15,362 nucleotides of DNA from Minisyncoccia bacterium (GCA_038211765.1 JBBQVG010000022.1:1-15362), one strand, 5' to 3'; counted from the first letter of the stretch, positions 2,790 to 14,700 are shown. Program-made: numbers and translations. The notes: generated by a model not told the origin, from the sequence alone.

Positions 2790-2853
2790 CAGAATTTTGA
2801 AATTGATGAGGTATAAGCTATACTTACCGAAATTGAAAATTTGAGATGACTCT

Positions 2854-2927
2854 GCGGGCATAGTTTAGTGGTAAAATGCGTCCTTGCCAAGGACGAGATG
2901 GGAGTTCGATTCTCCCTGCCCGCACCA
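2854..2927 (+). tRNA. tRNA-Gly (anticodon GCC), CCA encoded
   Basis: Acceptor GCGGGCA/TGCCCGC, anticodon arm CGTCC-TTGCCAA-GGACG, T arm GGGAG-TTCGATT-CTCCC, discriminator A followed by CCA (2925-2927). Confidence 0.9.
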
Positions 2928-2965
2928 ACATAGGGTTACCGATAGCAAAGCGAAGCTTTGCGTTT

Positions 2966-3078
2966 GAGAATCGAACGCCGGAGCGATGCTGAGTCAGCAG
3001 ACGAGGCCGCGAGGCGGTGGCTAGCCCGAGCCGAACTGGTGAGGTGAGAGGCGAAGCCGATTCTCCCTGCCCGCACCA
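2966..3078 (+). repeat. tRNA-tail element copy A: conserved 90-nt G-rich core (2971-3060) fused to a second copy of the tRNA-Gly(GCC) 3' end
   Basis: 2971-3060 aligns without gaps to 3855-3944 (79/90 identical by my count; perfect run 3009-3044 = 3893-3928). 3058-3078 (CGATTCTCCCTGCCCGCACCA) is an exact repeat of 2907-2927. 2966-2973 (GAGAATCG) is complementary to 3058-3065. Confidence 0.75.
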
Positions 3079-3272
3079 TAGGATAGTTGGGGATAACTCT
3101 GTGAATTGTGTTTATAAAAGACATGAATAAGGGCTAACAATCGTCATTTCTGTTGTCCGAGATGTCCTAAAGATATGTTTCACAAGAAACATTTCACGTG
3201 AAATAAGCCTGTTTTTCGATGTAAATTTGGCATATTATCTCTAATATTCGAGGTTTAACCTCGAAAATCAGT

Positions 3273-3730: not shown

Positions 3731-3803
3731 CGGGGCGTGGTGTAACGGCTAACATGCCTCTTTTGGGAAGAGGTGACTCCGGGTTCGAATCCCGGCGCCC
3801 CGA
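3731..3803 (+). tRNA. tRNA-Pro (anticodon UGG)
   Basis: Acceptor CGGGGCG/CGCCCCG, anticodon arm CCTCT-TTTGGGA-AGAGG, T arm CCGGG-TTCGAAT-CCCGG. Length 73 nt; no encoded CCA. Confidence 0.9.
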
Positions 3804-3848
3804 CAGACATTAGGTAAGCAATAGCAGGTGCCTTGAGGCACGTGCGTC

Positions 3849-4004
3849 CTGGATTCGAACGCCGGAGCCGTATCGAGCCAGCAGGCGAGATGGCGAGGCG
3901 GTGGCTAGCCCGAGCCGAACTGGTGAGGCGAGAGGCGAAGCCGAATCCCGGCGCCCCGACAAATTTTAGATAAGCAATAGCAGGTGCCTTGAGGCACGTG
4001 CGTC
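3849..4004 (+). repeat. tRNA-tail element copy B: conserved core (3855-3944) followed by a second copy of the tRNA-Pro 3' end plus its downstream hairpin
   Basis: 3942-4004 repeats 3786-3848 (63 nt with a few mismatches clustered at 3806-3815), giving a 156-bp period. 3851-3857 (GGATTCG) is complementary to 3942-3948 (CGAATCC). The core is homologous to copy A. Confidence 0.75.
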
Positions 4005-4054
4005 ATGGCAAAGCGATAGAGGCCGAATCATCGGCTGTGTGTTAAAATATTGAG

Positions 4055-4583: not shown

Positions 4584-4654
4584 GCGGGATTAGTTAAATG
4601 GTATAATAACAGTTTTCCAAACTGTGGTCGGGAGTTCGATTCTCCCATCCCGCA
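4584..4654 (+). tRNA. tRNA-Gly (anticodon UCC)
   Basis: Acceptor GCGGGAT/ATCCCGC, anticodon arm ACAGT-TTTCCAA-ACTGT, T arm GGGAG-TTCGATT-CTCCC. Length 71 nt. Confidence 0.9.
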
Positions 4655-4672
4655 CCGAAACACATTAATTAT

Positions 4673-5358: not shown

Positions 5359-5631
5359 TTATTTTACGGCGTCCTTGAGGGCCTTTGCGGCGCGGAACTT
5401 CGGAACCTTCATGGCAGGGACCTTGATGGCCTCACCTGTACGAGGGTTGCGAGCTTCACGGGCTGCACGCTGTTTTACTGAGAAGATACCGAGACCTGCG
5501 ATAGAAACCTCATCACCCTTCTTCAAGGAGTCGATGATGCTGTTAATCATAGTCTCGACCGCCTGCTCAGCCTGAACTTTCGTTCCGCCGAGAACTCCAT
5601 GAACTGCGTCAACAATACTTGCTTTGTTCAT
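5359..5631 (-). CDS. hup: HU family DNA-binding protein
   Basis: 90-aa ORF with MNKASIVDAV...GDEVSIAGLGIFSVKQRAAREARNPRTGEAIKVPA, the canonical HU/IHF arm sequence. Confidence 0.95.
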   Translation of the reverse strand: MNKASIVDAVHGVLGGTKVQAEQAVETMINSIIDSLKKGDEVSIAGLGIFSVKQRAAREARNPRTGEAIKVPAMKVPKFRAAKALKDAVK

Positions 5632-5839
5632 TTGTGTGTAATTAGTACTAATAATCTAGGCTCTAATACTGGTCTCGGTCCCTCAACCTCGATTCCGAGG
5701 TCTCGGGATCAAGTTGCGAACCATGAGGATAATTATATAGTAAGCCATTTTAAGCACAATAGGGCTGTAAAGATTGACAACATTTCTTTTTTCATGGTAT
5801 CTTTAGGCCATTCTATTAATTAATACAATTTTACGACCT

Positions 5840-6097
5840 ATGGCAAAAGAAAATTCTGCGTTTATGAAACCTATGACTATAAGTTCGGATCTGGCCGCAG
5901 TTGTCGGCGCAGGCCCTATGCCTCGATCTGAGGTGGTCAAGGCTCTCTGGGTATATATCAAGAAGCACAATCTCCAGGATCCCAAGAACAAGCGCAATAT
6001 CAACGCCGATGAAAATCTCAAGAAGGTTTTTGATGGCAAGGCAGTGGTCAATATGTTCGAAATGACCAAGCTGGTGTCAAAGCATCTGACGAATTAA
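5840..6097 (+). CDS. SWIB/MDM2 domain protein
   Basis: 85-aa ORF. PMPRSEVVKALWVYIKKHNLQDPKNKRNINADENLKKVF matches the SWIB domain pattern. Confidence 0.85.
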   Translation: MAKENSAFMKPMTISSDLAAVVGAGPMPRSEVVKALWVYIKKHNLQDPKNKRNINADENLKKVFDGKAVVNMFEMTKLVSKHLTN

Positions 6098-6118
6098 GAA
6101 AGATTTAGTTCGCTTACA

Positions 6119-6148
6119 AAAATACCGAAGGAATTCGGTATTTTTTGT
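6119..6148 (+). terminator. Intrinsic terminator after the SWIB gene
   Basis: ATACCGAA (6122-6129), GGAA loop, TTCGGTAT (6134-6141), then a T-run. Confidence 0.75.
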
Positions 6149-6283
6149 TGGGGCTCTATTTCCTTGTAAGTCTTGGTACCTTCAAGATCATTTCACCGAT
6201 TGCGTCACGGTAATATTGACTGTAGCTACAGAGACACGGATAGTCCATTCCATACCATTATTCTTCCGATGATTGAGGATTTT

Positions 6284-6342: not shown

Positions 6343-7101
6343 ATGTTAGAAAAATATCTCCAAGACATCGGCCTGAGTGAAAAAGAATCCGTCATCTACA
6401 TTTCCCTCCTGGCCGTAGACAATAGTTCTGTACTCGATCTGTCCAAGAAAACCAAGCTCAATCGTTCTACCACCTACGTTATTCTCGAATCTCTGGCTAA
6501 AAAAGGCTTGGTGACAGAGACGACGGTTGGTAAAAAGACTCATTACCAAGCAGAACCCCCAGAAAGACTCGAGACTTATGTTGAACAACGCAAAATCTTG
6601 CTTGAGGAACAATCAAAAAAACTCAAAGACATTATCCCTCAGATAAAAAGTGTACAGAGGGAGGGTGGTGAGAAGCCGATTGTGAAGTATTTTGAGGGAA
6701 AAGATGGTTTGATAAGCCTACATGAAGAATTTTTTCTTGGTCAAAATGAAGATGCGATAAGCTATCTAATATATTCAAAGGATTTAGTTGATGAAATATT
6801 TTCTGCGACTGAAAGGGAGAAATACAGAAACATGCGATTGGGTAAAAATATTAAGTCAAAAGTTCTTTACACCTACCTAAATGGAACAATTCCTACAAGT
6901 ATTGACGGAGAGAGAGTAAAAATTGATGGTACCAAATATCCTATACTTTGTGATATCTCAGTCTGTGAGGATAGAGTCAAAATTGCAATTCTAGGTAAAA
7001 AGCTTTCGGGTATTTTCATTAAAAGTAAAGAATTTGCTGAAACATTCAGGAGTATCTTTAATATTGGGTTTGACCAAATGCAGAAGGGGGCCCAGTCGTA
7101 A
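6343..7101 (+). CDS. TrmB family (winged-helix) transcriptional regulator
   Basis: 252-aa ORF. The N-terminal LQDIGLSEKESVIYISLL...LSKKTKLNRSTTYVILESLAKKGLV is the TrmB HTH signature. TGTGATAAT (extended -10) lies 9 nt before the ATG, suggesting a near-leaderless mRNA. Confidence 0.8.
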   Translation: MLEKYLQDIGLSEKESVIYISLLAVDNSSVLDLSKKTKLNRSTTYVILESLAKKGLVTETTVGKKTHYQAEPPERLETYVEQRKILLEEQSKKLKDIIPQIKSVQREGGEKPIVKYFEGKDGLISLHEEFFLGQNEDAISYLIYSKDLVDEIFSATEREKYRNMRLGKNIKSKVLYTYLNGTIPTSIDGERVKIDGTKYPILCDISVCEDRVKIAILGKKLSGIFIKSKEFAETFRSIFNIGFDQMQKGAQS

Positions 7102-7797
7102 TACGACCAGGCCCCGAACTAACCGAATCGGAACTTCAGATCGTTGTAGCCTCTTGGCTTTTTTTGCTTATCAACAATGAATGAACTTTGATCTAGACGA
7201 TCTCCGAAGTCCGACGTGCATCGCATTTGCGACCCGTACGATCCAAGCAATTAGGATCGATTATTTGCTTGATAGAGACCCATATCCTGAGTCAACATCT
7301 TAGCTTTCTTTTGACTTAATCACACATACTAGCTTTCCTTTCCTTACTTCTCCCAACTTTGAAGGGCACAACCGAATGGTTTCAATACCGTCTTCTAGTG
7401 CCTTATGAGGTCCACCAGAAGACGGTACTTACTTGCATCTAGTCGCTCATAAGTCCCTCCTTATTTCTGGTTGAGAGCCATGAATGGCACATTTTAAGGC
7501 CAATATCTGCCACCACCCACTTCTGAAACAAGTTTAGCAGACCAAAATCAAAATGTCAAGTTTTTATACCATTTTAGGCAAATAAGTAAGGTTTCAGGCC
7601 ATAAAACCATGAATATAGGCATATTTAGTTATTTTATCTGTTTTTTATTGTTTACAGAAAATTTTAATTAGAAATTATATATTTATATTGTCATAATATT
7701 TTATTAAATGTTATTATTTAATACCTTATTTATGATGAGAATAACCATATTTATAGGCATTATTTTGATACTAAAGGTTATATAATGTTATTTATAC

Positions 7798-7825
7798 TTG
7801 ACAGATTTATGGAATGTGCTAGACT
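7798..7825 (+). promoter_or_regulatory. Strong sigma70-type promoter with extended -10
   Basis: Perfect TTGACA (7798-7803), 16-nt spacer, TGc-TAGACT (7817-7825). A ~240-bp very AT-rich tract (UP-like) lies immediately upstream. Confidence 0.6.
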
Positions 7826-7831
7826 CTGCAA

Positions 7832-8697
7832 CAGAACAAAAGATGTGTCCAGGGAAGGCACTGCTATCCCGCTTCGATCGGAGCGCCATGTCTCAATAAA
7901 AATGACGGGCGCTCGGAAAGGAGCGGGATGAGGAACCTTAAAAATGCACATCATGAGTGATGGCACGACCATGACCCACGCCGAGTGGCTGGCATGGTTG
8001 CGCGGGGAGTAGTAGTACTCCCTATGCTGTGACTGCAGTAATGTAGCGCACGGAGTATGGGTATCAGCTTGGCAAAAGAAATGATACAGCAGACCCACTG
8101 CGACAAGGGAAAGGTATCCATACCTACACAAATGGAGATGCACGCAGAGTTAACAACGCAAATAATTCTGCGTGCATATAGGGGGGAACTCATGTTCCCC
8201 ACTTTATCAGGTTCGTTTTGGAAATGAGCCTGCAAAGTGTCCGTCAGTTAGAAAAAGTAGTTCTTTACAATAGTGTCTGCACTATCTTGCATCTAAAGTG
8301 ATGCGTAGATGCGAGATAGTGCAGATACTTCGCAGGTATCCGAGCACGCTGTGTGACCCGGTACAACCCGGCGTATAGTAACCTCTTTTTCACATGGATG
8401 AGAGGTAAGGGCGCACGGAGTTCCCGTGACCACCCGAAAAGTAGTGAGTGCGAATGAAAGCTTCAGCTTTCATTGGCCCGGAAAGCTCAGCATTGGTGCT
8501 GAGTAACCGTTTGTTTCGCCACATCGCGCTTCTACCAGGAAGCGGAGGTTGTGGGAAACATCTCATTGCATGGGTGCTGTGTACACCCGAGACATGCTGG
8601 AGCATGTTCTCACTGCGAGTTTTTCGGTTCGCTCATTCAACCCAAATGAGCATCTTATTGAATCAATGACATGAAGTCGTTGATTCAAAGGAATTTG
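7832..8697 (+). ncRNA. Candidate large structured non-coding RNA / highly structured leader (family not recognised)
   Basis: No credible ORF. There is a dense series of perfect local helices. Examples: 7866-7873/7922-7929 enclosing 7881-7887/7908-7914; 7968-7973/7993-7998; 8005-8011/8016-8022; 8138-8148/8167-8177; 8183-8189/8194-8200; 8273-8295/8306-8328; 8381-8386/8401-8406; 8454-8461/8466-8473; 8486-8492/8497-8503; 8527-8532/8539-8544; 8592-8597/8602-8607; 8658-8670/8676-8688. Boundaries are approximate. Confidence 0.5.
8273..8328 (+). other. 23-bp hairpin immediately after the first GTTCTTTACA box (8260-8269)
   Basis: 8273-8295 pairs with 8306-8328 (21 Watson-Crick plus 2 G-U pairs) around a 10-nt loop. 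Confidence 0.7.
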
Positions 8698-8708
8698 GTT
8701 CTTTACAT

Positions 8709-9014
8709 ATGAAAACTTTACTATTGTTCGTCTTCGCGGCATTTGTGCTCGTCGGATGTGTTCCGGAGCAAAGCGCACCCCGATCGCTTACCTATTTTCC
8801 AACTAATAATTGGCAGGTAGTGAGTGTGACGGAAGGTGAGGTGGTGGTCGAAACAAAATCGACCAACTTGCCCCTGCGATACAGGGTAGTCCGAGCTACT
8901 CCTGTTACGCCACTGACCAACGGTCAGTTTGCGAGGGTTGAGCTCACTTTGAAACGCCATCTGTACAACCCTGACGAGGTTGCCACAGCTCGAGCGTTTC
9001 CGGCGGACCACTGA
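8709..9014 (+). CDS. Small putative lipoprotein
   Basis: 101-aa ORF. MKTLLLFVFAAFVLVGC is a signal peptide with an L-V-G-C lipobox. The ATG is directly preceded by a GTTCTTTACA box (8698-8707). Confidence 0.6.
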   Translation: MKTLLLFVFAAFVLVGCVPEQSAPRSLTYFPTNNWQVVSVTEGEVVVETKSTNLPLRYRVVRATPVTPLTNGQFARVELTLKRHLYNPDEVATARAFPADH

Positions 9015-9110
9015 GGCGAGACCATGGATGTCTATAAACTCCCGTAATACTCTGGGGAAGCTCCAGGGCGCCTAACAAGCGGAAACTGTTGGGATGATGC
9101 AAATCGTCTC

Positions 9111-9163
9111 TCTGTTCTCGAGATGAGTATCTCGACTGACGAGTCTGAAAAGACGAAAACAGA
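9111..9163 (+). ncRNA. Hammerhead ribozyme, type III (HHR-1), predicted cleavage after C9117
   Basis: Stem III TCTGTT (9111-9116)/AACAGA (9158-9163), then C17. Stem I TCGAGA-TGAGTA-TCTCGA (9118-9135). Core CUGACGA (9136-9142). Stem II GTCT-GAAA-AGAC (9143-9154). Core GAAA (9155-9158). Confidence 0.85.
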
Positions 9164-9190
9164 AACGTTCTTTGAGTTAATAAAGCATTT

Positions 9191-9241
9191 CACCTCCGCT
9201 TTTTCTATTTCATTATTTTTGGAATAAAGAAAGCGGAGGTG
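9191..9241 (+). promoter_or_regulatory. Hairpin sequestering the Shine-Dalgarno sequence of the 9247 ORF
   Basis: CACCTCCGCTTT (9191-9202) pairs with AAAGCGGAGGTG (9230-9241). GGAGG (9235-9239) lies in the 3' arm, 7 nt before the ATG at 9247. Confidence 0.6.
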
Positions 9242-9246
9242 TAAAA

Positions 9247-9429
9247 ATGCCATTCTGCCGTCCCAAAGGGTCGGAGCTGGTTGCGATCATTGGTCGTAGC
9301 CTTCTCAGTAGTTGGGTGCACTCAAGCGTTGGCAGGCTGAAATCTGTCTTGGTAACCCCAGTAAAGAAGAAATTCTTTACACTTGAGAGTCGCAACTGCA
9401 AGCCGTATGAAGAGTACCTCTTCATTTGA
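9247..9429 (+). CDS. Hypothetical small protein (60 aa)
   Basis: The ORF is preceded by a strong GGAGGTG SD at optimal spacing. No family recognised, and an internal hairpin is present, so coding status is uncertain. Confidence 0.4.
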   Translation: MPFCRPKGSELVAIIGRSLLSSWVHSSVGRLKSVLVTPVKKKFFTLESRNCKPYEEYLFI

Positions 9430-9537
9430 ATCATTAGCAAATATCGATGGTAGTCCATCGGAGATGATTCACGGAAGGGAGGTGTTGGGGTAATTCAAAA
9501 CCCTGACACCTCCTATCATCCTTATTTAGGAAAATTT

Positions 9538-9696
9538 ATGGGGATGGGAGCAAAGTCTTTCAAAACCACTGGAGGGTCAGGGGGCAAGAAAGGTCACTCC
9601 AACATGGTTCATTGGACGTTCACTGAGGAAATCAAAGTGATCGCCAAGAAGGCACGCAGGATGGCCGATCGAGCTCTCTCCCGTCCGCGGGAGTAG
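9538..9696 (+). CDS. Hypothetical small basic protein (52 aa, below the ORF-track cutoff)
   Basis: My translation: MGMGAKSFKTTGGSGGKKGHSNMVHWTFTEEIKVIAKKARRMADRALSRPRE, ending at TAG. AGGA lies 6 nt upstream of the ATG. Confidence 0.3.
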   Translation: MGMGAKSFKTTGGSGGKKGHSNMVHWTFTEEIKVIAKKARRMADRALSRPRE

Positions 9697-9972
9697 GAAG
9701 CAATAACACCTGTAAAATGGTTGCCACAAAATCCGGTGGTGTAAATCAAGGTAAAAAGTTTTGTCCCCATTTCGTAAAATGGAGAGCCTAGAGGAAGCAG
9801 AGCCTCACGCAGTCGGAGCCGTATGGCTAGTATAGAGGTAACAGAGATCGACACTCTATTGCGTCCGAAGACTTGGTTGGCTAGTCTCCAACCCTAAGAT
9901 CGAGCACGGCCCAGTCGTGGGATACTCTAGTGGAAGTAACTAAAATCCACTCTTGATGACATTGTCATCAAG

Positions 9973-10024
9973 TTCTGTCTCAGAATGTAATTCTGACTGA
10001 TGAGCTCAAAAGAGCGAAACAGAA
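9973..10024 (+). ncRNA. Hammerhead ribozyme, type III (HHR-3 by order of discovery, second in position), predicted cleavage after C9979
   Basis: Stem III TTCTGT (9973-9978)/ACAGAA (10019-10024), then C17. Stem I TCAGAA(T)-GTA-(A)TTCTGA (9980-9996). Core CUGAUGA (9997-10003). Stem II GCTC-AAAA-GAGC (10004-10015). Core GAAA (10016-10019). Confidence 0.85.
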
Positions 10025-10035
10025 GTTCTTTACAA

Positions 10036-10091
10036 TCATGTTCATAGTATTCTGAATATTTATATAGGTACTTAGAATACTATGAATATGA
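10036..10091 (+). promoter_or_regulatory. ~20-bp hairpin burying the first two in-frame ATGs of the 10082 ORF
   Basis: 10036-10055 pairs with 10072-10091, with a 13-bp perfect core TTCATAGTATTCT/AGAATACTATGAA. The ATGs at 10082 and 10088 lie in the 3' arm. Confidence 0.6.
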
Positions 10092-10258
10092 AAATGAAAG
10101 TACTGTTTATCAGTATCGCCGGGCTCTGGGCAGTTGCTGCTTGGGCGAGTTACGAGCCCCACGTTCTTTTGATGAACGTGGCGAGTGTGTTGGGATTGCA
10201 GCTAGGTATCATTTATTTGGTACTTGAGCGGCGGCACACGAGGCGCGTGACCAAGTGA
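10082..10258 (+). CDS. Small hydrophobic protein, two predicted transmembrane helices (58 aa, below the ORF-track cutoff)
   Basis: My translation: MNMKMKVLFISIAGLWAVAAWASYEPHVLLMNVASVLGLQLGIIYLVLERRHTRRVTK, ending at TGA. It has two ~19-aa hydrophobic stretches and a basic tail. Confidence 0.45.
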   Translation: MNMKMKVLFISIAGLWAVAAWASYEPHVLLMNVASVLGLQLGIIYLVLERRHTRRVTK

Positions 10259-10298
10259 GGGACTTGAATACCCCTTCTCCATCCAGTGAGAAACTGGA

Positions 10299-10349
10299 TT
10301 GCTCTCGAGATGTGTGTCTCGACTGATGAGTCCGAAAGGACGAAAGCAG
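10299..10349 (+). ncRNA. Hammerhead ribozyme, type III (HHR-2), predicted cleavage after C10304
   Basis: Stem III TTGCT (10299-10303)/AGCAG (10345-10349), then C17. Stem I TCGAGA-TGTGTG-TCTCGA (10305-10322). Core CUGAUGA (10323-10329). Stem II GTCC-GAAA-GGAC (10330-10341). Core GAAA (10342-10345). Confidence 0.85.
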
Positions 10350-10364
10350 AGTGTTCTTCGTAAA

Positions 10365-10426
10365 TTGATGTTCATAATAATCTTATTTTTGAATATCATC
10401 AGAAATTAGATTATTATGAACATCAA
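10365..10426 (+). promoter_or_regulatory. 19-bp perfect hairpin burying the start codon of the GNAT gene
   Basis: TTGATGTTCATAATAATCT (10365-10383) pairs with AGATTATTATGAACATCAA (10408-10426) around a 24-nt loop. The ATG at 10416 is inside the 3' arm. Confidence 0.65.
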
Positions 10427-13326: not shown

Positions 13327-13611
13327 TTAAGAGTTTAGGGCAGCAATAAGTTCGTCCACCGAATGAGCCACTGGTAATTTTCCCTCCCTGTATTCTTTTT
13401 CTCCTTTTAATAAGGACGCAATTGTTTTCTTGTTTAGTACGTATTCTTCTTCTGTAGTCAGGCTCACCCCTTTATTACGCACAAACTGGCGAAGAAGGGC
13501 ATTGACGAGCGTGCCGAGAGGCAACCCGATCTGTTCGGCGGTTTTCTGGGCGGCCTGCTTGAGATTCTTGTCGATTTTGACTGTGAGTAAGGTTTTAGTA
13601 TTTGTAGTCAT
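13327..13611 (-). CDS. RelB/DinJ-like (ribbon-helix-helix) antitoxin
   Basis: TKTLLTVKIDKNLKQAAQKTAEQIGLPLGTLVNALLRQFV is an RHH/DinJ pattern. I prefer the ATG at 13611 (MTTNTK...) over the ORF-track start at 13659. Confidence 0.6.
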   Translation of the reverse strand: MTTNTKTLLTVKIDKNLKQAAQKTAEQIGLPLGTLVNALLRQFVRNKGVSLTTEEEYVLNKKTIASLLKGEKEYREGKLPVAHSVDELIAALNS

Positions 13612-13671
13612 ATACCCAAGTATATACTTCGGTATGATGGTGTCAATAAAAATCAACATACGTCAGGATCA

Positions 13672-14700
13672 ATGTCTACTGGTAGGTTTCGTAATGAAGC
13701 ATACAATTGTGGCATGGATGAAAAGGGTAAAAATATATTATTGTACGCATCACCTGATGGGGCACTCAAGTTGGAGGTGTCGATTGATGGCGAGACGGTT
13801 TGGCTGTCACAAAAGCAGATGGCGGAGCTTTTTGATTGCAGTGTCTTTAATATCAATGTGCATTTAAAGAATGTGTATAAAGAGGGCGAATTAGTGGAAA
13901 GTCGAACTATTGAGGAATCCTCAATAGTTCAAAAAGAAGGAGGGCGGACTGTTTCTCGAAGTACTATGTTTTATAACTTAGACGCCATTATTTCCGTCGG
14001 ATACCGTATCAATTCCATAAGAGGCACACAATTTCGCATCTGGGCCACAAAAAAGCTGAAAGAGTACATAGTCAAAGGCTTTGTCCTCGATGACGAACGG
14101 CTGGCTCAGGGCAAGAAATCAGATTACTTTGATGAGCTTCTCGAGCGAATCCGTGGTATCCGCGCCAGCGAACGCAATTTTTATCAGAAGATTACTGATA
14201 TCTATGCCACAAGTGTGGATTACAACAAGAATATAGAGGACACCCGGAAATTCTTTGCAGGAGTGCAGAACAAGATTCACTATGCAGTTCATGGCAAGAC
14301 TGCAGCAGAAATAATTGATTCTCGAGCTGATGCAAAGAAAAAGTATATGGGACTGACCAATTTCAAAGGGAAACTCATTAAACAATCCGATATTTCCATC
14401 GCCAAGAATTATTTGAATGAAAAGGAATTGAAACAACTTAACCTGATAACCACGCTCTATCTCGACTTTGCAGAATTGCAGGCAAGCAACGAACGTCCGA
14501 TGACTATGAAGGAGTGGGTCAGTAAACTGGATGATTTCCTAAAGTTGAGTGAAAAGAAGGTCTTGAAAGGTGTTGGTACGATGAGTAAAAGCGTTGCGGA
14601 CAAGAAAGCGCACGCAGAATTTGAGAAGTACCGCAAAGAGAAGGATAAAAAATATGCTTCAGATTTTGACAGGCAGATGAGGAAGTATGTGAAGAAGTAA
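13672..14700 (+). CDS. rhuM: RhuM family (virulence-associated) protein
   Basis: LYASPDGALKLEVSIDGETVWLSQKQMAELF...YNLDAIISVGYRINSIRGTQFRIWATKKLKEYIVKGFVLDDERL matches the RhuM family. The true start may be the ATG at 13714 (MDEKGK...). Confidence 0.8.
   Translation: MSTGRFRNEAYNCGMDEKGKNILLYASPDGALKLEVSIDGETVWLSQKQMAELFDCSVFNINVHLKNVYKEGELVESRTIEESSIVQKEGGRTVSRSTMFYNLDAIISVGYRINSIRGTQFRIWATKKLKEYIVKGFVLDDERLAQGKKSDYFDELLERIRGIRASERNFYQKITDIYATSVDYNKNIEDTRKFFAGVQNKIHYAVHGKTAAEIIDSRADAKKKYMGLTNFKGKLIKQSDISIAKNYLNEKELKQLNLITTLYLDFAELQASNERPMTMKEWVSKLDDFLKLSEKKVLKGVGTMSKSVADKKAHAEFEKYRKEKDKKYASDFDRQMRKYVKK

Follow-up and report, generated by a model that had tools for sequence, protein, structure and literature searches.

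The segments that lie directly 3' of tRNA-Gly(GCC) and tRNA-Pro(TGG) in the DNA analysed here (the window, the whole stretch of 15,362 nt) are two members of a large, conserved, structured family that extends across Patescibacteria. A family copy is a GC-rich three-way junction of approximately 110-180 nt, which comprises two hairpins (P2 and P3) and purine-rich junctions and is usually preceded by a further hairpin (H). P2 and P3 belong to the element itself, and the basal stem, P1, derives from the neighbouring tRNA. We give about an even chance to the reading that the family is a non-autonomous, gene-less, duplicative element with ends templated from the T-loop and 3' end of a tRNA. No description of the element was found in the literature searched, and this family of tRNA-flank hairpins is apparently previously undescribed.

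A large part of bacterial diversity lies in Patescibacteria, whose tiny genomes carry each tRNA gene in a single copy, and about half of the tRNAs in the carrier loci are followed by an element. Duplicated tRNA ends and inverted copies of this kind can mislead the prediction of tRNAs, genomic islands, and att sites, and can break assemblies.

Two copies in the window

The contig that makes up the window belongs to Patescibacteria (Parcubacteria/Taylorbacteria-like). It contains genes for a CCA-adding enzyme, YraN, and RNase Y, and the homologues of its YraN carry Patescibacteria names. ARAGORN and Rfam both identify four tRNAs in the window, which are given here together with the parts of the two elements.

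2718-2790: tRNA-Arg (ARAGORN, Rfam)
2854-2927 (+): tRNA-Gly(GCC), intact, with encoded CCA (ARAGORN; Rfam tRNA model, 72.1 bits)
2907-2927 (+): S, first copy of the 21-nt direct repeat, tRNA-Gly positions 56-76
2928-2943 (+): leader of the tRNA-Gly element, the position of X in other members; X is degenerate here
2944-2962 (+): H hairpin of the tRNA-Gly element, A-GCAAAGC-GAA-GCUUUGC-G, the family hairpin of ~25 nt directly 5' of Y
2966-2976 (+): Y of the tRNA-Gly element, GAGAATCGAAC, exact reverse complement of tRNA-Gly positions 53-63
2976-3016 (+): P2 hairpin of the tRNA-Gly element, CGCC-GGA-...-AGCA loop-...-GA-GGCG
3017-3019 (+): J2/3 of the tRNA-Gly element, conserved GUG
3020-3057 (+): P3 hairpin of the tRNA-Gly element, with tandem G-A loops
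3058-3078 (+): S', second copy of tRNA-Gly positions 56-76; the 3' strand of P1 is 3058-3065
3731-3804 (+): tRNA-Pro(TGG), intact (ARAGORN, Rfam)
3786-3852 (+): first copy of the tRNA-Pro direct repeat, from position 56 to the tRNA end, then leader, H (3824-3845), and GTCCTGG
3848-3860 (+): Y of the tRNA-Pro element, CCTGGATTCGAAC, reverse complement of tRNA-Pro positions 53-65 with 12 of 13 matching
3860-3941 (+): core of the tRNA-Pro element, with P2 (3860-3900), GUG (3901-3903), and P3 (3904-3941)
3942-4008 (+): second copy of the tRNA-Pro direct repeat, with S' (3942-3961, position 56 to the tRNA end), a second leader, and H (3980-4001)
4584-4656: tRNA-Gly(TCC) (ARAGORN, Rfam)

A preliminary description of this DNA had reported that the last 21 nt of tRNA-Gly(GCC) are duplicated. 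The sequence CGATTCTCCCTGCCCGCACCA, which runs from C56 of the T-loop to the encoded CCA, does occur exactly twice (2907-2927 and 3058-3078), and the number expected by chance is 0 (200 shuffles, even with two mismatches allowed). The small hairpin GCAAAGC-GAA-GCTTTGC described between the copies is also present, at 2945-2961. Within Y of the tRNA-Gly element, 2966-2973 forms the 5' strand of P1 and GAA(C) forms the junction J1/2. In each window copy, Y is base-paired with the tRNA copy downstream of it, and X (complementary to the acceptor 3' strand) is degenerate.

The core was correctly said to recur after tRNA-Pro. The two cores align without gaps over 114 nt (2959-3072 vs 3843-3956) at 82% identity, including a 36-nt identical tract in one hairpin, and their differences are confined mainly to the other hairpin, P2, where they are compensatory (GCG/CGC to GCC/GGC, GCU/GGC to AUC/GAU, and GUC/GAC to GCC/GGC). 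The core at tRNA-Pro scores 108.5 bits with the covariance model of the family. Its direct repeat is 67 nt long (3786-3852 vs 3942-4008, 93% identity) and takes in the leader and hairpin in addition to the tRNA end. The two copies correspond to segments 2928-3078 and 3805-3961, and the element units measure 151 and 156 bp. No ORF lies inside either unit, in line with the distinction drawn earlier from integrase-encoding elements of kilobase size. Antisense ORFs at 2936-3124 and 3810-3962 were rejected as a conserved protein, because their frames differ relative to the aligned core.

A sigma-70-like promoter (TTGAAA, 16-nt spacer, TATACT) is predicted at 2797-2824 (+), 30 nt 5' of tRNA-Gly(GCC). 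No terminator-like site was predicted between this tRNA and its element or 3' of the element, and no terminator separates tRNA from element in the window.

Several other features of the window were recorded. A palindromic motif like TTTCACGTGAAA is repeated at 1698-1718, 1737-1757, 3182-3202, and 8700-8717; the copy 5' of yraN is kept in three related loci (L001, L130, and L131), and the palindrome is a candidate operator or binding site. In an ORF-poor region (~7100-10400), three matches resemble type III hammerheads (9116-9158, 9972-10025, and 10303-10345, all +), with scores of 29-44.5 bits (E from 2.5e-3 to 1e-7) that are all below the Rfam gathering score. Each is followed by a hairpin of 25-28 bp (9188-9244, 10036-10091, and 10365-10426), and the matches look like another repeated, ribozyme-bearing element. 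Finally, a RelB-like antitoxin gene (13327-13659, -) adjoins a RhuM-family gene (13672-14700, +; Pfam E=1e-109), and the pair may be a small mobile or defence island.

Conserved fold and tRNA-derived ends

To collect family members, one genome per species was scanned with the pattern TCGAACGCCGGAG-N(15-45)-CGAGGCGG. At least 119 loci matched, and about 100 among the matches listed are true elements. The pattern included TCGAAC and so skews this sample in favour of complements of the T-loop; copies recovered by the covariance model alone show more variation there. The covariance model, built from 36 copies and used with a cut-off of E<1e-3, gave 113 matches in 96 loci among the matches listed, including divergent second and third copies. 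The idea that the core might be a decaying scar present at two loci only and conserved nowhere else therefore fails. The carriers among the matches listed are almost all MAGs of Patescibacteria, and belong to Saccharibacteria, Paceibacterota/Parcubacteria, and the Uhr-, Kaiser-, Magasanik-, Woese-, Nomura-, Portnoy-, Kerfeld-, Yanofsky-, and Moraniibacteria; six carrier MAGs have other labels, which were assigned automatically. In the 96 loci, 77 of 169 tRNAs (~46%) are followed on their own strand by an element at most 150 nt away, and 13 amino-acid types are occupied (Ala, Arg, Cys, Gln, Glu, Gly, Ile, Leu, Lys, Pro, Ser, Trp, and Tyr). All copies have the orientation of their tRNA.

Matches in high-GC genomes outside the CPR were rejected as chance hits within genes, with no GGTG, P3, or tRNA. 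A phage origin was likewise discarded, since the only two matches in viral contigs are both chance hits in high-GC coding DNA. A metagenome scan for empty and filled alleles with the window's own flank as query returned no match. With Rfam 15 (ribozymes, tmRNA, YrlA, and riboswitches), only the four tRNAs exceeded the gathering threshold in the window, and nothing credible covered 2928-3078 or 3805-3961 at E<=10.

Read 3' from the tRNA, the order of parts is an optional terminator-like hairpin, X, H, Y, P2, a GUG junction, P3, and S'. The fold is established by comparison. In the alignment of 113 sequences, which was fitted to the covariance model, 94% of cells are paired and 32 of 33 pairs change on both sides; none of 500 shuffles matches this, and slid controls reach 35-48%. 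An independent MAFFT/RNAalifold analysis recovered compensatory changes in 23 of the 33 pairs. In P2 and P3, read on the tRNA-sense strand, G:U pairs outnumber A:C combinations by 39 to 12, and the tRNA-sense strand is therefore the folding strand. Nucleotides of the junctions and loops are also conserved (GAA, GGAG, CGAG, GUG, and a CAGCAG loop), and the GC content of the element is 65-70% against a background of ~45%. Folding energies of single sequences are unexceptional, whether calculated as RNA or DNA (z-scores of -0.7 to -1.4), so the weight rests on the comparative evidence alone. This three-way junction and the inverted tRNA-derived segment go beyond what the preliminary description contained.

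A hairpin like H abuts Y in 57 of 65 copies and has a conserved closure (AGCA...UGCG). Wherever X is present, the spacing between X and Y is fixed at 24-26 nt, and H fills the gap. On inspection, a kissing interaction between the loops of H and P2 proved inconsistent across copies, and the GA loops do not follow the sequence rules of a K-turn or box C/D motif.

Both ends of a copy correspond to the tRNA beside it. Y is the reverse complement of positions 53-65 of the local tRNA, ending ...TCGAAC, and its match beyond position 58 averages 5.9 nt for the local tRNA vs 1.2 nt for non-cognate tRNAs. X complements positions 66-73 and beyond, with at most one mismatch in 20 of 65 copies (~31%), and it runs on into the genomic trailer instead of CCA: in L022, TTGTGGACC stands in place of the expected TGGTGGACC, and L025 reads ACTGCGGG. 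A primer-binding site of a retroelement, which would complement the mature 3' end including the added CCA, is thereby excluded. Both Y and X show Watson-Crick complementarity to the tRNA's 3' strand, including at positions that form G:U pairs or mismatches within the tRNA, and thus they are not copies of the tRNA's 5' strands.

S' is a direct copy of the tRNA. The earlier suggestion that the element carries or captures a tRNA 3' end is borne out by 65 copies in which S' matches the local tRNA and the upstream tRNA is intact. When each copy was compared with its own tRNA, S' was perfect over positions 57-73 in 26 of the 65. Of 36 aligned copies, 13 have A in place of C56, so that the direct copy strictly begins at G57, just past the universal GTTC. 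The inverted copy extends to the complement of G53, and the two edges together bracket the GTTC of the T-loop (G53-T-T-C56). The hairpins P2 and P3 adjoin GAAC (complementary to GTTC), and S' follows the GTTC equivalent, a statement to be read with the TCGAAC that the search pattern imposed and the variation in copies found only by the covariance model. The length of S' is 0, 7-8, ~20 (the mode), or up to 67 nt, and in some copies an extra hairpin lies inside it.

The tRNA-derived segments differ in how well they are kept. Y and the inner part of S', which form P1, are far better conserved than X. Only two of eight single mismatches in X are compatible with wobble pairing, and X appears to decay as if neutral. 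S' is often truncated or decayed, and S never is. The neutral decay of X and the truncation of S' fit segments that were made at the birth of a copy and have drifted since.

Turnover and possible origin

Comparison with relatives indicates that occupancy of individual tRNAs changes. The closest genome, L001 (YraN 89% identical), has the same four tRNAs with clean empty sites and no covariance-model match. At tRNA-Gly it reads ...GCACCA followed by TAGGATAAGT..., and the flank TAGGATA directly follows S' of the tRNA-Gly element in the window, which thus holds exactly 151 extra bp. L002 (YraN 66%) carries elements after tRNA-Pro and tRNA-Gly(TCC) and none after tRNA-Gly(GCC); its two cores are 100% identical and the flanks follow each tRNA. 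In L130 (YraN 78%), tRNA-Pro has the leader and hairpin without a core. L131 (YraN 75%) has the leader, H, and Y, then a degenerate short core, in an inverted block. The tRNA-Pro element seems to have reached the window, L131, and L002 by vertical descent, with losses in L001 and L130, and such loss would be consistent with recombination between the direct repeats. Relative to yraN, this block of L131 (~520-670, tRNA-Pro/leader/H/Y) has the opposite orientation to its counterpart in the window, and one breakpoint lies directly after TCGAACGCC, at the boundary of Y and core.

Elsewhere, tandem arrays occur in L028, L060, L099, L113, and L123, and orphan copies with no tRNA in L034 and L063, as well as nested or decayed copies. 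Identities of cores within genomes are bimodal: approximately ten pairs at different tRNAs share 81-100%, against a 95th percentile of 75% between genomes. Cores have been exchanged among loci, and core types are shuffled relative to tRNA identity and H; for example, L113 and L083 are both at Ala-CGC and their cores differ. The same Y...S' frame also houses unrelated cores (types B, C, and the AT-rich type D), which have an inverted copy of the T-arm to their left and a direct copy of the tRNA to their right. Such cores were seen in L060 (~950-1230, where they alternate with type A in an array after tRNA-Asp), in L121, and downstream of tRNA-Val, tRNA-Leu, and tRNA-Thr in L051, L057, and L043. 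A terminator-like hairpin with a T-run separates tRNA and element at 26 of 65 loci (40%), and one follows S' at 21 of 46; given the former, co-transcription with the tRNA is no general requirement.

The only ORF-bearing case is L016, where the product of 5457-6149, 230 aa long, combines an N-terminal HTH with an alpha/beta domain. It has no Pfam match, and its AlphaFold model (pLDDT 88) has no fold match in the PDB. Its protein family includes at least 128 CPR proteins, among them ones in L124, L126, and L128. The gene lies directly 3' of tRNA-Glu(TTC) in L016, L126, and L128, and in L124 it closes a 2.4-kb insert that ends in a 3' fragment of tRNA-Glu (GTTCAAATCCCGGTGGGGCC). This protein is a candidate tRNA-Glu-specific integration or homing protein.

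A gene-less duplicative element with templated ends, the reading that we favour, is suggested by the patchy and changing occupancy, the arrays, the orphans, and the presence of several subfamilies per genome. It is further favoured by unrelated cores in one frame, by the neutral decay of X and distal S', and by terminators ahead of 40% of copies. Such an element would occupy the 3' flank of a tRNA, always in the orientation of the tRNA, and its conserved T-shaped junction would have to fold as a single strand of tRNA-sense polarity. Its 5' end would be written from the target as the reverse complement of positions 53-65, often continuing through 66-76 into the trailer, and its 3' end as a direct copy from G57. 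Because the 3' part of the tRNA is duplicated, the tRNA would stay intact and the insertion would be harmless, with the 21-nt repeat as the footprint of this duplication. Installation would be a templated event at the DNA level. Candidate routes are copying by fold-back or template switching, or rolling-circle (HUH-type) strand displacement that starts at GTTC, and later refinement by quasipalindrome correction is conceivable. The edges that bracket GTTC also recall a staggered break with 4-nt overhangs. We infer that the element is selfish and of no use to its host. As mobile DNA, it would represent a new way to enter essential genes harmlessly, with ends adapted to any tRNA and no gene of its own.

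Several observations count against this duplicative reading. H lies exactly between the complements of positions 66 and 65, so one fold-back copy cannot yield X-H-Y, and neither IS91-like action, nor a staggered break, nor fold-back switching alone explains a conserved H at the 65/66 junction. No mobilising enzyme and no transposase was found in or beside the copies (about 100 among the matches listed), and no fresh insertion was caught among the loci compared. The differences in presence and absence can all be explained as loss by direct-repeat recombination too. The identical cores with non-identical flanks in L002 and the mosaic pair in the window (P3 identical, P2 different) argue for gene conversion over transposition. 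Covariation, junction purines, the sense-strand G:U excess, and GC richness are what would be expected of a functional RNA, and the much better retention of P1 than of X points the same way.

These features would be accommodated by a host RNA gene linked to the tRNA, an explanation that we regard as possible, though we lean against it. According to it, the trailer would encode a structured RNA of ~150 nt that mimics an acceptor/T-arm minihelix: S' would pair with the upstream antisense segments, the core would replace the T-loop, and the RNA would be freed and trimmed by RNase P, RNase Z, and the CCA-adding enzyme or would bind a protein, with gene conversion homogenising the copies. Besides the very strong covariation, the 39 vs 12 ratio, the conserved junction and loop nucleotides, the GC content of 65-70% in a ~45% background, and the superior conservation of P1, this proposal fits the tRNA orientation of every copy, the X-H-Y plus S' topology that is exactly the acceptor/T stack of a tRNA, the lack of a terminator between tRNA and element in the window, and the retention of the tRNA-Pro element across lineages in which YraN is just 66% identical. 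It fits poorly with the 40% of loci where a terminator-like hairpin and T-run precede the element, with no room for a separate promoter. The closest relative lacks the element at both sites, and half of the tRNAs are empty even in carriers; just 20 of 65 copies have X, which decays neutrally; S' is frequently reduced to 7-8 nt or lacking altogether; AT-rich type D cores keep the frame without the conserved junction motifs; and orphan copies have no tRNA at all. The single-sequence folding energies also weigh against an RNA. If it is RNA nevertheless, the family constitutes an abundant and new class of structured RNAs linked to tRNAs, each containing both an antisense and a mimic of its own tRNA. 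A more specific idea, which we consider unlikely and put forward tentatively, is a self-retargeting mobile hairpin that spreads among tRNAs in a replication-coupled manner, anchored on the GTTC of the T-loop, or an RNA version of the same. At the DNA level, fold-back copying or rolling-circle displacement would rewrite both flanks from each new target, giving an antisense and a sense copy of the tRNA's 3' third and always restoring the tRNA that was entered. In the RNA version, every tRNA would be accompanied by an RNA that bears an anti-tRNA guide as well as a mimic of the tRNA end and is matured by the tRNA-processing machinery. If the mobile hairpin were true, it would be a mode of transposition without described precedent.

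The other explanations, an integrase scar, a T-loop intron, and chance, are poorly supported. A miniature integrative element, in which attL and attR enclose stripped cargo and a tyrosine integrase acts in trans with crossover in the T-loop, would account for a direct repeat from the T-loop to the tRNA end, as at classical tRNA att sites, and genes for XerC/D-like integrases do lie a few kilobases away in L001 and L002. We nonetheless judge it very unlikely: no integrase was found in or beside about 100 copies among the matches listed, the same core occurs at 13 or more tRNA types with a matching segment at each, which a conservative crossover cannot rewrite, repeat lengths span 0-67 nt, an att site has no use for the inverted tRNA copy, and the element side of the junction has no similarity to the 5' arm of the T-stem. 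The view that the insert interrupts the T-loop, either as an intron or with the downstream copy completing the tRNA as an alternative 3' exon, has in its favour that positions 1-55 joined to S' recreate a tRNA at the window loci, and that tRNA-Ser(GGA) of L095 (~2150-2400) is predicted only after removal of the insert. The upstream tRNA is intact in at least 65 cases, which upholds the initial view that the window tRNA is neither split nor intron-containing. L095 is the sole broken case; its upstream 3' part is missing and reconstruction gives a non-canonical T-loop (TTTGACC), which makes a deletion pseudogene probable. Together with the frequent truncation of S' and never of S, a core far too small for a group I/II intron, and the absence of a bulge-helix-bulge motif and of any Rfam ribozyme match, this makes an intron extremely improbable. 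A chance repeat or a decaying local duplication limited to this genome might be suspected from the mere two copies visible in the window. With no match expected by chance and 113 covarying homologous copies at 96 loci in many Patescibacteria lineages, that suspicion is almost certainly wrong.

Comparison with known systems

The element resembles tRNA-targeting integrative elements, in which a tRNA segment from a loop to the 3' end is duplicated, the tRNA remains functional, and the element lies between the copies. The direct repeat typical of such elements is present in both window copies and family-wide. Those elements are kilobases long, encode an integrase, and keep to one tRNA per lineage, whereas the present one is 110-180 nt long, has no gene, and occurs at at least 13 tRNA types. 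The one-lineage-one-tRNA rule does not hold here, as 13 amino-acid types are used and cores at different tRNAs within a genome are 86-100% identical. The inverted copy of the tRNA end is an extra feature of the present element.

MITEs, Rickettsia palindromic elements, and Correia elements are similarly short, gene-less, hairpin-forming, and multi-copy, with several subfamilies per genome. Their terminal inverted repeats are fixed, as are their short duplications, and their targets are of many kinds; the present element, in contrast, is restricted to tRNA 3' flanks, has target-derived ends, and makes a long and variable duplication (0-67 nt).

Among tRNA-like RNAs (the tmRNA domain, YrlA, viral structures, and minihelices), the likeness is that X-H-Y plus S' reproduces the acceptor/T-stem stack including the discriminator. 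The difference is that two hairpins replace the T-loop here, with its bases paired. Furthermore, the acceptor-like part is found in only ~31% of copies and is absent in the window, while the T-stem part (P1) is present. The Rfam models for tmRNA and YrlA do not match the element.

Template switching at fold-backs or quasipalindromes yields the same order of S, inverted S, and S, with junctions at pre-existing hairpins, such as the tRNA terminator and T-arm. It is a sporadic mutation and leaves a conserved core and a conserved H at hundreds of loci unexplained.

In IS91/ISCR, GTTC or CTTG lies beside an end with two subterminal palindromes, and flanking DNA can be picked up. In the copies collected with the TCGAAC-containing pattern, two hairpins likewise lie next to GAAC/GTTC, and the direct copy of the tRNA starts immediately past GTTC. 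IS91 differs in having an HUH (Y2) transposase, fixed ends, and no target duplication, whereas in the present family the tRNA end is duplicated, no transposase was found, and the GTTC next to the core belongs to the inverted T-loop copy. The resemblance is a lead, not membership.

Folded single-stranded DNA sites offer a further possible analogy. The T-shaped hairpins of parvoviruses, attC of integrons, REP/REPIN, and attP of the CTX phage are sites of this kind in which structure is conserved over sequence, and the likeness extends to strand specificity and to a GC-rich T or three-way junction of ~110-145 nt. We know of no partner protein for the present element. The basal stems of the known sites are fixed and are recognised by a Rep protein, an integrase, or a RAYT transposase; in the present family the basal stem is copied from the tRNA.
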